Source: a virus. Taken from it: a stretch of DNA of 64,000 bases. The stretch spans positions 11,766 to 75,765 of IMG/VR virus record IMGVR_UViG_3300048583_000222; one strand, given 5' to 3'. The notes under the pieces are model-generated. The model worked only from the letters and a program-made list of their open reading frames with translations, ran no database searches and was not told the DNA's origin. Positions 2 to 42,447 of this stretch are shown here, in pieces (the first letter of the stretch is position 1; each line of letters opens with the position of its first letter). A program made the position numbers and the translations under genes.

Positions 2-3000
2 GGAATTGTTAATTGTCTCTTTTTGTTGTTCAAGTGCTGATATGATCTTGTTTAGTTCTGCAGATAGCGACTTGGGCTTTTTGGGGTTACCTTGTGTAAG
101 TGCTTTAGGGTTAGCATGTACAATAATGTTCACACCCTCACGCTCTGTCTTGATCTGCAGTCTCTCTTCCAGTACCTTTGCTGCCTTGGCTGCTTCCACC
201 TCATTGCGGAATGTCCATGGACCAGGTGTACCGTCTGCTACTGTAGCGGATGCCGCAAGCAGCATGGAATTAGCCTGTAGGTTTACAGTCTTCGGATTGG
301 CAGGATGCAATATGTACAGGTGTTCCTTTGTACGGGATACGGCCGTGTACATACCATTCATCACTTCCTTATCGGAGAACTTGTGCTGAGCAGGACCGAT
401 GAAGTTGTACTCATGTACGAACACGTGGTTGTACGTGGAGCCCTGACTTTTATGGGACGTCACCGTATAGGCAGGTTCGATGTCCACAATAAGCTTGGAG
501 AGGGCTTCCATCATAGCTACGTACTTGGGATAGGCCAGAAAGTCTGCTCCTCCCGACATGCCACGCAGGTCCGCGGGAATGTTGAATCCCCCGTTTACGT
601 ACCGGTTCGGTTCGCCTTTGCGTTTATCACCTTCAATGCGGTTCTTGATCTCGTAGTACGTATCCTTGGTAATGCCTTGGGTTTCCACTACAATGTTCTC
701 CAGCTCACTGCCAAGGTCGAACTTGTAGTCAAATCCAGGCAGGTCGACTTTTACTGCAAACCATGGTTCGCCATCCCTGTCCAGTGCCACTGTGTCTTTG
801 GTTACGCGTCCGGGAACTACAGATTCCACAATGACACGCTGCATGTTGAAGAAGTCTGCCTTGGCCTCAAGTTCACCTAAGCGCTGAGCAGTTTCCGCAC
901 TGAGTCTTGTGGGTTCATGCGCACTGTTGAATATCGCAATGTCTCCTGCACTGATCTTGGTGCTAGTAGCGATTGCTTCGCCGAAGCGCTTGGTGCGTAC
1001 CATCAGGTTGAACTCTTCCCGTACCTTGTTGGTACTCACGATCATCAAGGCATTTTTCGGATTCTTCATGTCTTTGCTGAGCTCGTTCATGAAGCTGTTG
1101 AAGAAGTCTTCCCGGCTGCTGAGATAGCTTACATTCTCAGAACTTACCCTGTTAGGGAATGCCACTACCGGGAACTTATATGTACCAGTACCTGCCCGTA
1201 CACCGTCGATAGCGGCTCTGTACGCATTCAGTACGGTTACGACATCTGCTTTGTTGGTACGCATGTTCTGCGTCAGGGAGATGCCTGCCGTGTTGATGTA
1301 CTCCCGAAAAGGCAGCGAATCGTTGACCTGGCCTACGGGTGTAAGCTGTGCATAGTCTCCCATGAAGATGACCACCGCATTGTCTGGCGCATCTTGCTTC
1401 AGGTAGTTCATCAGTGTGTCATCGAGCATGGATGATTCGTCAACTACGATGATACTGCTGCTGCGAAGTGGCTTCTTGAACTTGCCACGTTTCTGCTCGA
1501 ACACGTCTGTACCTGTCTGCATGGACTTGATTGCATTGCGCTTAAGGTCCAGTTGCGCATGTATGGTGTCGACCTTTGCATTGGGCAAGGTCTCTTTTAC
1601 CTTTCCCAGGGCACTCTTCAGTTCCACAATAGCGTTGTGTGATGGAGCTGTGATCACCATCTTACGATCGGCAAACTCAGCCAGTACCTTGCGCAGGATA
1701 GTCGTCTTACCTGTACCACCCGCACCAGAGAGTACGAACACGCGCTGTTCGAATGGGATGTTCTCTCCTGCCATAAGCTTGCTGTCCACATCCCCGATGA
1801 ACGCTGGTATGCGGTCGATAGCCTCACGCTGCTTCTCATTGGCAAATACGCCCGGGAACAGTTCGTAGCGAGACATACCTACCTCTGGTTTATTTTCAGC
1901 AGGCTTCTTCCCAATCTTGGGGAATACGGGAGGTTGCCCTGGAATGATCGTATACTCGGTACCGTCCTCTATCCATGGTACGCTGTCCTCGTCTTCTTCG
2001 GGTTTACCGTAAAGACCCAGTACCTCGCTGATGGCTTTCTGACGCACCGGTTCTGGCATGCCATGCATGAAACTGTCGTGTACCTTGACTGCCACACCAT
2101 CGGCTCGTACACCTACGATTACATCTCGGTCGTTATATTCTACTGTACCGGCCGTGAGGATCTCGGTGACACCGCCCTGTTTCATCACGTGGATGATGTG
2201 CGGCAGCGCTTCTGCGAGTACAGAGTCGTGCTTGACGGGCTCTCCGATCATGTTGGCAATGTTGTTGAACAGGGTGTTCAGAAAATCCCACACTGCTTCC
2301 AGTACAGAGCGCTCTCCGTCATACTTCATGTCGTTGAGAATCTTCATGGTCTCGGCGTTCGTCGTCGCGTGTGCAACAAACTCGTGCGGACTGGATGCCC
2401 AGTACTCGCCTTCATGTCCCTTGCGTGCAAACTCCCAAAGCTTGACGATATGGCGTGCAGATTGCATGACAGGATCATTGTAGTCGAAGTGCTTTTCGAA
2501 AACGCTGGTACTCTCCCCTTTAGTCCTGCGATACGCAAACTCTATCATAGGTAGTGTAGCCCAGTGCATCAGCTCGTGTACAAAGGTCTCCTGAACCCCC
2601 GCAGCTGCGTCAGGTCGTAAAGATGCCCCCGGAGTAACTTGCTGAAGTATAATACTGTTCTCAGGCAGCAAGTAAGCCGGTCTGCCGGAAGCAAATCCGA
2701 TCTGCAGTCGTCCAGAACTGTTTGGTCCTCTGTTAGCGGAGGTCCTGTCATAGGTAATCTCCTCTATCAGGTCCTGGAATTCCTGGCTGCCGCTGAAGTT
2801 GTGCAACTCCGTGAGCAGGGTGTGGTACACGCCCGGGAGGGTACCGCTGTTGAGCATATGCGGGATGATGGTGTCGTTGATGTCCTCGACCTCAGATACT
2901 TCCTTGGTGATGCCCAGCACTTGGGTGTAGATCGGGTGCACATTGGAATTCTGCTCGATCTCCACCGGACGCTGCCCATTGGGGACCACAGTGTTGCCTT

Positions 3001-40009: not shown

Positions 40010-40399
40010 TTATTTTAATGCGTTAACAATGCTGCGGAATAGCCTGTCCTTTTTCTGCTGGTGCTGTGGCAGTTGGTAGAATGGTACCAGACAGGGGTGT
40101 GTCTTAAGGTCTACATTCTTCTCCGCTCCGTACACCCATCCTTCAGCTACTTTCTGGTCAGCCCAGCTGTCGTGCATGGCACTATCTCCTGCGTCAGGAT
40201 TGCACAGTGCAAAGGCCACTCCATAGATAGCACTGCTTCGTTGCCACTCTGGAGCATTGTCCCAGTCCAGTTGGGAGTCGTCTCCTTGTGCTTCACACCA
40301 GGCCTTGTTGGCTTGGTGACATACCTTGGCAATCGCCTGCAGGGTAAGCTGCTGGGTGATATCATTGATCATGCTTACGGGATCTATTTGTCCAGTCAT
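40010..40399 (-). CDS. RyR (ryanodine receptor repeat) domain protein
   Basis: MHDSWADQKVAEGWVYG..KN...KTHPCLVPFYQLP..QQKKD matches the RyR domain consensus H..W......GW.YG.......HP.LVP...L.....D. Confidence 0.85.
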   Translation of the reverse strand: MTGQIDPVSMINDITQQLTLQAIAKVCHQANKAWCEAQGDDSQLDWDNAPEWQRSSAIYGVAFALCNPDAGDSAMHDSWADQKVAEGWVYGAEKNVDLKTHPCLVPFYQLPQHQQKKDRLFRSIVNALK

Positions 40400-40749
40400 T
40401 TTGGTAGTTTGTGAAAGTTAAGGTTTACAATAACATTGCGGTGGCGCTCGGTTATCCAGTAGGGGACCTTCTCATTGATCTTGAACACTCCCCGGGAACC
40501 TTCGATGAGTCCCAGGTTCTTGAGTACCTTGATGTTGTTGTGGAAGTTCTGCTGACTGAATCCCAGCGCTTCACTGTACTCACTGAACACCACTACTACG
40601 TGCCCCTCGGCATCGGCCTTTGTACACATCCAAAGCAGTACCTGTAGTGCGGGCTCTGAGGTCAGGCCCAGTACAGACTTCATGGAATGCAACACTGCCA
40701 GCAGCAGGTCATCCGGAGTAGTGACGGTCAGTGAGTGCGTTGTTTTCAA
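40396..40749 (-). CDS. RepL-like winged-helix protein
   Basis: LQVLLWM...SEALGFSQQNFHNNIKVLKNLGLIE..RGVFKIN wHTH pattern; RepL-like genes are known near the terminase in crAss-like phages. Confidence 0.6.
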   Translation of the reverse strand: MKTTHSLTVTTPDDLLLAVLHSMKSVLGLTSEPALQVLLWMCTKADAEGHVVVVFSEYSEALGFSQQNFHNNIKVLKNLGLIEGSRGVFKINEKVPYWITERHRNVIVNLNFHKLPK

Positions 40750-40934
40750 AACTTAGGATTTGGTCGTTCTTTACGTTTACGCTTGAACAAGATTTTATTG
40801 GTTGTGTAGCCTACATTGAACATGTCTTCTGTAGGGTCACGGAGGTTACGCACAGGCCCTCGCTTGTACTTGTAGATCAACTTACGGATAAGGTCTCTGA
40901 TCAGTTTCATAGCGTGGCTGCTTTCACGGCCCAC
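40746..40934 (-). CDS. Small basic hypothetical protein
   Basis: 62-aa K/R-rich ORF overlapping its neighbours. Confidence 0.4.
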   Translation of the reverse strand: MGRESSHAMKLIRDLIRKLIYKYKRGPVRNLRDPTEDMFNVGYTTNKILFKRKRKERPNPKF

Positions 40935-41155
40935 ATGGCTGCTTCTTCTGCTGCGGTCTGGGCCAAGGCCTGTAGACGGAAGAATTCACTGCGCTTTTCT
41001 ATCTCCCCATCTTGTGCAACAGGTGCACTGATAGCTGGTACAGCAAGCTCTTCTACCAGATCAATGAACTTGGCAGCACTCTCCTTGATTTCGTATACGT
41101 GGCCGCTACCACTGGGGTTAAACTCTACGCGTACTCTTGATTCTCCTTTTGACAT
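40907..41155 (-). CDS. Acb2/Tad1-like helical-hairpin protein (candidate immune-signal sponge)
   Basis: GESRVRVEFNPS..VYEIKE.AAKFID and RLQALAQTAAEEAAMWAVKAAT; the C-terminal R..A.A.T..EEA.MW pattern resembles the Tad1 hairpin as I recall it. Confidence 0.55.
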   Translation of the reverse strand: MSKGESRVRVEFNPSGSGHVYEIKESAAKFIDLVEELAVPAISAPVAQDGEIEKRSEFFRLQALAQTAAEEAAMWAVKAATL

Positions 41156-41184: not shown

Positions 41185-41412
41185 TTACAACATAGGGTAA
41201 CCGGTCCCTACATTGGTCGTTGGTTTGTCCTGAGCTGTCTCGCTCTGGTCCTCGCTTTGCTCAGGTTCCTGTACAGAGTCTGTCTCGGTTTCTGTCCCTT
41301 GTTCTGCCAGTACTTCCTCAGCCAGGGTAACTGCGGTGGGTGCGGTATCTGGGGTATTGTCTACACCGATCGTACCGTTACTTGGGTCTACTGTTGTTGT
41401 GTTCTCGTCCAT
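41185..41412 (-). CDS. Small highly acidic protein
   Basis: 75 aa with 17 D/E versus 1 K and no R; A-rich leader. Confidence 0.55.
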   Translation of the reverse strand: MDENTTTVDPSNGTIGVDNTPDTAPTAVTLAEEVLAEQGTETETDSVQEPEQSEDQSETAQDKPTTNVGTGYPML

Positions 41413-41849: not shown

Positions 41850-42100
41850 ATTACTGGTTTTAGTTTTCTAAGTCCTCCCCGCTCCAGGAACTTGAGCAGG
41901 TCTTTTCTGGTGTACCCCCATAGATACGGGGCGTCTGGACCACAGGTCACAGTTTCCCATACTGCTATGTGCGGCTCACATACGGTTTCTGTCCCGTTAG
42001 TACTCATCATTACCAATCCACCGGTAGTCATGGTGTGGATCTCATAGGTCTCCCCGATCCTGATCTCCTCTGGCTTCGGTATGTAGTACTCAGCACTCAT
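41843..42100 (-). CDS. Hypothetical protein
   Basis: 85-aa ORF overlapping both neighbours. Confidence 0.55.
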   Translation of the reverse strand: MSAEYYIPKPEEIRIGETYEIHTMTTGGLVMMSTNGTETVCEPHIAVWETVTCGPDAPYLWGYTRKDLLKFLERGGLRKLKPVIC

Positions 42101-42447
42101 CTTCCTTCAGGTATAACGCTGCAGATGACCATGTACTCAGGACCTATCTGCTCATGTGCTATGATGAACGTCTCAGACTGGCAGAAGATGTCACACACCT
42201 GTATCCCACTAGCATCCGTGGCACAGACATAGAATTCTTTACCACTGGTGTGCAGCAAGACGTTACCTCTCACTGGAGTAGGTCTTTTCCCGGATAGTGT
42301 CTCCAGTCCCAAGTTCCTGTACTTGAAAGTGGTACCTCCGATGCCAGGCTGATCCACTTCCTTAACCAGTGCCTGTACGGCCGCTGGAGCAGCAACTGTA
42401 GCTGCAGCGAGTCCTAGTAGTCTTCTGATAAAGCTTTTCCTATTCAT
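42097..42447 (-). CDS. Hypothetical protein with Tat-like signal peptide
   Basis: MNRKSFIRRLLGLAAATVAAPAAVQA: RKxF variant of RRxF, hydrophobic core, AxA site. Confidence 0.55.
   Translation of the reverse strand: MNRKSFIRRLLGLAAATVAAPAAVQALVKEVDQPGIGGTTFKYRNLGLETLSGKRPTPVRGNVLLHTSGKEFYVCATDASGIQVCDIFCQSETFIIAHEQIGPEYMVICSVIPEGR

Follow-up and report, generated by a model that had tools for sequence, protein, structure and literature searches.

A probable Acb2-family signal sponge gene in a divergent crAss-like phage

Whether a crAss-like phage encodes a sponge for the immune signals of its host, and which signals such a protein would bind, are the questions raised by a short gene in the 64,000-nucleotide stretch of viral DNA analysed here (the window). 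An earlier note, made from the sequence alone, had proposed the 82-amino-acid product as a candidate Tad1/Acb2-type protein that counters the Thoeris or CBASS defence systems. Here we evaluate the gene and its setting, the family and branch to which the protein belongs, and its probable ligands.

Genomic setting of the gene

The contig is around 96 kb in length, and one protein encoded in the window exceeds 3,890 amino acids. As these features accompany a terminase that is ~30% identical to Crassvirales terminases over more than 95% of its length, the description of the phage as crAss-like in the earlier note appears fair, with the qualification that the phage is divergent. A literature search for Acb2 and crAss returned no title or abstract that pairs Acb2 with crAss-like phages.

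The open reading frame and its C-terminal end (...RLQALAQTAAEEAAMWAVKAATL) are exactly as previously quoted (Table 1), and the gene is real and conserved, as judged by its homologues, viral relatives, synteny and selection. We identified 279 homologues in the protein collection (E ≤ 1e-3), and PF24729 is present in all 120 of those listed. In IMG/VR, 514 relatives were confirmed by tblastn, that is, viral loci of homologues of the gene, and the GC content of these loci ranges from 28% to 68%. In L083, a 78%-identical relative, the surrounding genes stand in the same order, and comparison with the 78%-identical relative shows purifying selection on the gene (dN/dS 0.21 at dS 0.74). The corresponding slot of a sister crAss-like phage (L066; TerL 73% identical) also contains a homologue. 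Among the genomes of cultured phages, the sole tblastn match, in Providencia phage PS3, is weak and partial.

The gene lies in a block of small, closely spaced genes on the minus strand. This block is bounded on one side by a divergent intergenic region near 43.0–43.1 kb and on the other by genes for a PD-(D/E)XK nuclease, terminase, portal and major head protein. The slot is variable and is surrounded by small accessory genes. The window shows no enrichment of a Bacteroidota-type promoter pattern (1 match versus 0.74 expected), and we therefore assigned no promoter.

Table 1 Features of the locus, with positions in the window
Feature	Position	Strand	Basis or context
Probable Acb2-family sponge gene, 82 amino acids plus stop	40907..41155	minus	ORF from ATG to TGA; Pfam PF24729
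Conserved N-terminal segment, residues 4–24 (G-E-x-R-V-R-x-x-F-N-P-S ... V-x-x-I-K)	41084..41146	minus	120-sequence alignment
Lineage-specific 9-residue inter-helix loop insertion, residues 42–50	41006..41032	minus	Alignment gaps
C-terminal helix signature, residues 57–81 (E-x-x-R-L-x-A-L-A-Q-T-x-x-E-E-A-A-M-W-A-V-K-A-A-T)	40913..40987	minus	120-sequence alignment
54-amino-acid strongly basic ORF	40746–40910	minus	ATG overlaps the Acb2 stop codon (ATGA)
117-amino-acid protein with weak winged-helix (MarR/DnaD-like) matches	40396–40749	minus	After the Acb2 gene
Stand-alone RyR-domain protein (PF02026, E 9e-13)	40010–40399	minus	Two genes downstream of the Acb2 gene
75-amino-acid, very acidic, low-complexity ORF	41185–41412	minus	Directly upstream of the Acb2 gene
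116-amino-acid ORF with a twin-arginine-like signal peptide (MNRKSFIRRLLGLAAATVAAPAAVQA) at its start	42097–42447	minus	Sequence

Several of the neighbouring genes have features of their own. The overlap of the start codon of the basic ORF with the Acb2 stop codon suggests translational coupling of the two genes, and a 52-amino-acid ORF stands at the place of the basic ORF in another locus (L084). The protein with winged-helix matches has a similar-looking helix-turn-helix segment, by eye and with no tblastn match, in the gene that follows the Acb2 homologue of the sister phage (L066, 4222–4596). RyR genes also occur elsewhere (L014, 827–1198; L072, 3584–3961; L083, 5758–6129; L084, 936–1307). 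The RyR gene is kept in close relatives of the window phage, and in two unrelated high-GC viral loci it directly adjoins the Acb2 homologue, in opposite orders; the link between the two genes is weak, because this arrangement is seen in only 2 of 80 IMG/VR loci. The RyR protein could be a second anti-defence gene product. The acidic ORF contains 17 Asp or Glu residues versus 1 Lys (counted by hand) and had no match in the family search; small ORFs occupy the same position in L066 (3642–3908, visibly acidic) and L083 (4783–5004), and the protein may be an anti-restriction protein of the DNA-mimic type. The signal peptide of the 116-amino-acid ORF, which also had no match in the family search, is unusual for an early or accessory gene of a phage.

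Family membership, fold and predicted self-association

The Pfam-A search returned one match, PF24729 ‘Acb2/Tad1, hairpin domain’ (E 1.5e-10), in which residues 15–81 align with profile positions 8–57 of 58. Because the score of 41.5 bits is above the curated gathering score of 27 bits, the family proposed in the earlier note, which had suggested this very comparison, holds, and the protein is very probably a member of the Acb2/Tad1 hairpin family. No meaningful match was found in NCBIfam, and a phmmer search of the PDB with the single sequence recovered a designed repeat protein only and no sponge protein.

We constructed clade alignments of 44 sequences (A1) and of 120 sequences. When the clade profile was searched against the PDB, the only sponges recovered were Acb2 chains, namely 7UQ2 (T4 Vs.4; E 0.047) and, weakly, 9PTQ (Acb2_43; E 0.81), and both matches extend over the last helix. 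None of the PDB searches (profile, Foldseek and VIA-align) returned a Tad1 chain.

The AlphaFold2 model built from A1 (pLDDT 93, pTM 0.80) consists of a short helix (residues 3–8), an ordered loop (9–17) that bears F12-N13-P14, and two long antiparallel helices (18–35 and 49–81). The hairpin of the ‘two-helix protein’ described earlier is thus present in the model, but the number of helices is three. The absence of the β part of Tad1 is borne out: the 17 residues that precede the hairpin are modelled as the short helix and loop, with no strand. Foldseek comparison of the model with the PDB found nothing below E 1.9. The best structural match by identity (VIA-align) is 7UQ2, with Z 7.0, an r.m.s.d. 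of 2.9 Å and 21% identity over 68 residues, from model 13..82 to 7UQ2 12..83; this match is statistically tied with many unrelated helical hairpins, so membership is not decidable by fold search alone.

The protein is predicted to self-associate, which agrees with the oligomer that the earlier note had suggested modelling. With two copies and one 3′3′-cGAMP (the ligand itself was unscored), the homodimer reached an ipSAE of 0.88, whereas none of three controls exceeded 0.00. All contacts (100%) are common to the three runs, with a partner pLDDT of 92 or higher; when the ipSAE mark was calibrated, 20 of 30 solved homo-pairs and 1 of 23 single chains attained it. In the predicted interface, helices 18–40 and 54–82 pack symmetrically, with the C-terminal helix as the core. 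Residues 1–18, K24, R60 and T67 are free of this interface, as expected if they form ligand pockets or three-fold contacts. The dimer result may reflect memory, within the model, of solved Acb2 complexes.

Conserved residues, candidate ligands and rival explanations

Conservation among the 120 relatives is concentrated in two blocks. In the N-terminal block, G4, F12 and N13 are invariant, and P14 (118/120), V20 (118/120) and K24 (117/120) are nearly so; E5, R7, V8, P14, V20 and K24 are each present in at least 112 sequences. We regard residues 4–24 as a candidate cyclic-dinucleotide pocket. The second long helix bears R..A.A.T..EE..MW..K, invariant or nearly so, with R60, E70, M74, V77, K78, A79 and T81 invariant and T67 (116/120), E71 and W75 each found in at least 116 sequences. 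Many Acb2-catalogue proteins in the tables of Hadary et al. 2025 carry this C-terminal signature; the window protein itself is not among the entries in the part of Table S1 that was searched, which has no bearing either way.

The only local peculiarities of the window protein are the loop insertion and residue 69. The insertion columns are gaps in 83–108 of the 120 relatives; among the homologue sequences inspected, the insertion is common only to the 78%-identical P0002, and it is the block of lowest confidence in the AlphaFold2 model (mean pLDDT 79). Position 69 is Ala here and Tyr in most relatives. In the Acb2 homologue of the sister phage (L066, 3905–4249), the position of T67 is Met and that of E71 is Asp, with the rest kept; on account of these two substitutions, its putative trinucleotide pocket may have been lost.

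Profile alignment places the conserved helix in register with characterized sponges. With hhalign, the clade aligned to single sequences over the last helix only (T4, 55.6% probability; JBD67, 3.8%), and A1 aligned to a profile of the T4 Vs.4 family (A2) with a probability of 86% (E 5e-6) over 28 columns, again in the last helix only. The N-terminal segment had no profile-level alignment to canonical Acb2 in these comparisons (T4 and JBD67 sequences and T4-family profile). In the hhalign registers, R60 lies opposite T4 D61 and the Arg of R-W-A-A-I-A-K-T in JBD67, and T67 lies opposite T4 T68. Independent of this register, T4 D61 and T68 are the equivalents of PaMx33 R67 and T74, which coordinate the cA3 phosphates; binding is lost in the R67A mutant and weakened in T74A (Cao et al., PMC10312549). 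R60 (120/120) and T67 are therefore in register with the trinucleotide pair of PaMx33. Presence of this pair does not by itself confer cA3 binding: T4 Acb2 D61R still lacks it, because the geometry of the pocket also matters (Cao et al., PMC10312549).

The correspondence extends to Tad1, in which the cA3-binding pair is R88/T95 in CmTad1 and R90/T97 in CbTad1; in CmTad1, A91/M92 touch the bases and Q98, E99, M102, W103 and K106 hold the hexamer together (Li et al., bioRxiv 10.1101/2023.11.15.567273). A63/L64 of the window protein are in register with PaMx33 A70/I71 and CmTad1 A91/M92, and E70, E71, M74, W75 and K78 line up with the residues of the CmTad1 hexamer interface; the spacing of all of these residues and of R60 and T67 is identical to that of their Tad1 equivalents. 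This register of pocket and hexamer residues accounts for the near-invariance of the last helix and for the Tad1-like motif pointed out in the earlier note.

We think it probable that the window protein is an oligomeric anti-CBASS sponge of the Acb2 branch that binds cyclic dinucleotides of the 3′3′-cGAMP type and possibly trinucleotides. The small helical protein would self-assemble, by analogy as a hexamer, with its two long helices forming the core of the oligomer. The segment from F12-N13-P14 to K24, together with K78, would form a dinucleotide pocket at the dimer vertices, and R60 and T67 would line a trinucleotide pocket on the three-fold axis. Sequestration of the cyclic-oligonucleotide messengers of CBASS would mean that the host effector is never switched on, and the phage would be protected.

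Published tests of relatives bear on the ligand. A previous study assembled a set of 4,204 non-redundant Acb2 homologues, from which 46 were assayed for activity against seven defence systems that rely on signalling (Hadary et al. 2025, bioRxiv 10.1101/2025.08.24.671296). The closest tested relative of the window protein, Acb2_42 (IMGVR_UViG_3300005456_000087, 82 amino acids; 53% identical, E 1e-20), was classed there as Acb2. Acb2_42 was positive only against the type I CBASS of E. albertii, the signal of which is 3′3′-cGAMP (Table S2), in a plaque assay only, after plate transformation had failed; it was negative against Thoeris I, II and IV, the cUA CBASS of Y. aleksiciae and both Pycsar systems. 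Of the tested homologues in which the N-terminal motif is of a related FN(P) type, #1, #8, #36 and #41 inhibit the cGAMP CBASS of E. albertii, #12 (Acb2_12), which has the FNPSG motif of the window protein, blocks cGAMP CBASS and type I Thoeris, #15 blocks cUA CBASS only, and Acb2_2 (FNPAG type) and #24 inhibited none of the seven systems. The screen of these clade relatives was without a trinucleotide system (bioRxiv 10.1101/2025.08.24.671296). Of the two activities proposed in the earlier note, the anti-CBASS one is favoured over the anti-Thoeris one, given that Acb2_42 blocks only cGAMP CBASS.

The main rival reading, possible if somewhat unlikely, retains an Acb2-fold sponge with a main ligand other than 3′3′-cGAMP or cA3, such as c-di-GMP, another dinucleotide of Bacteroidota CBASS or a signal beyond those screened so far. 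Specificities vary widely between Acb2 homologues, as the divergent outcomes for #15, #12, #2 and #24 illustrate, the N-terminal pocket segment differs from its canonical Acb2 counterpart, Bacteroides CBASS uses cGG (Li et al. discussion, bioRxiv 10.1101/2023.11.15.567273), and the window protein has its lineage-specific insertion and A69; however, the nearest tested relative blocks cGAMP CBASS, and the putative pocket residues F12, N13, P14, K24 and K78 are identical in the two proteins. That the protein is instead an anti-Thoeris sponge for 3′cADPR/gcADPR, like Tad1 or Acb2_43, is decidedly unlikely. Type I Thoeris was inhibited by 10 of the 46 tested Acb2 homologues (bioRxiv 10.1101/2025.08.24.671296), including Acb2_12 with its shared motif, and K78 aligns with the Acb2_43 lysine numbered K55 by Hadary et al., a diphosphate contact, but Acb2_42 inhibited none of Thoeris I, II or IV, and the gcADPR-binding arginines of Tad1 have no counterpart, because the window protein ends at residue 82, four residues after K78. 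Relative to the motif arginine, CbTad1 R109 and R113 stand at +19, which is the invariant Ala79 here, and at +23, which is past the C terminus.

Helical hairpins are common, the fold match is unspecific and some tested family members lack anti-defence activity, all of which would suit a role unrelated to signal sequestration, for example as a structural or regulatory oligomer; we consider this very improbable, as the protein matches at the sequence level a family defined by sponge proteins, its invariant positions match those to which ligand and hexamer roles have been assigned by experiment, and its gene sits in the variable accessory slot described above.

The anti-CBASS reading would give a divergent environmental crAss-like phage a confident sponge annotation, and would imply that its hosts, presumably Bacteroidota, use cyclic-oligonucleotide signalling defences against it. 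The residue map (F12, K24, R60, T67 and K78) provides mutants with which to probe di- and trinucleotide binding in an abundant Acb2 clade; beyond this map and the annotation, the result is a routine family assignment. A bolder conjecture, which we rate as unlikely, is that the R-V-R-x-x-F-N-P-S clade is an intermediate between Acb2 and Tad1, Acb2-sized and resembling Tad1 in its hexamer and trinucleotide helix, and that its distinct N-terminal pocket, modified here by the 9-residue insertion and the change of Tyr69 to Ala, is tuned to a Bacteroidota immune signal outside those screened, for example of cGG-type CBASS; the recurrent RyR-domain neighbour may act with the protein as a second anti-defence component.

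Comparison with known Acb2 and Tad1 proteins

T4 Vs.4 (PDB 7UQ2) and the Acb2 proteins of PaMx33 and JBD67 (PDB 8H2J) belong to the same Pfam family as the window protein, and are likewise small all-helical protomers with an N-terminal pocket segment and a hairpin. They also bear A-x-T-x-x-x-E-A-x-M-W-A in the C-terminal helix. The dinucleotide pocket of these proteins contains a stacking Tyr and a Lys (Y11/K26 in PaMx33; Y8/K23 in T4). V-x-x-I-K, with its conserved Lys, is common to T4 Vs.4 and the window protein (T4 K23 is the equivalent of PaMx33 K26), and V19, I22 and K23 are invariant in the T4 Vs.4 family; K24 is placed opposite T4 K23 by this common motif and the endpoints of the structural alignment, a weaker mapping than that of R60 and T67. 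For the stacking Tyr, the window protein has at best F12: F-N-P resembles Y-K-P at T4 Y8, the linker is 3 residues shorter in the window protein and the segments are unaligned. As the N terminus has no profile alignment to canonical Acb2, the equivalence of F12 to Tyr11 is a motif-level guess.

Acb2_42, from a different viral contig, has the same length and clade signature as the window protein (G-x-S-R-V-R-x-x-F-N-P-S ... A-A-K-F-I-D ... L-A-Q-T-x-A-E-E-A-A-M-W-A-V-K-A-A-T), and differs in its inter-helix loop, from which 8 residues are missing when the two are aligned pairwise.

Tad1 (CmTad1, CbTad1 and SBSphiJ7 Tad1) resembles the window protein in its C-terminal helix, as the earlier note had stated: C-R-E-N-A-L-A-L-T-x-L-E-E-x-x-M-W-x-x-K in Tad1 (Hadary et al., Table S2) corresponds to F-R-L-Q-A-L-A-Q-T-A-A-E-E-A-A-M-W-A-V-K in the window protein. 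For Tad1 #45 of that table, 11 of 23 positions in this helix are identical (counted by hand), including the cA3-binding R/T pair and the E-E..M-W..K residues of the hexamer interface. Tad1 differs in having an N-terminal antiparallel β-sheet domain, with lengths of 98–148 amino acids in Table S2, and a C-terminal R-x-x-x-R tail that binds gcADPR, both of which are absent from the window protein. Acb2_43 (PDB 9PTQ), which binds 3′cADPR, has terminal β-strands and a 15-residue C-terminal tail, which contribute to its pocket; neither is present in the window protein, as judged from the monomer model. The Acb2 branch is favoured over Tad1 because the PDB profile matches are to Acb2 chains and the 82-amino-acid protomer, of a size expected in that branch (about 60–100 amino acids) and with its N-terminal segment and hairpin only, has neither the β domain nor the tail arginines. 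The clade has already been catalogued and partly tested, and the window protein is an added member of it, in a divergent crAss-like phage.
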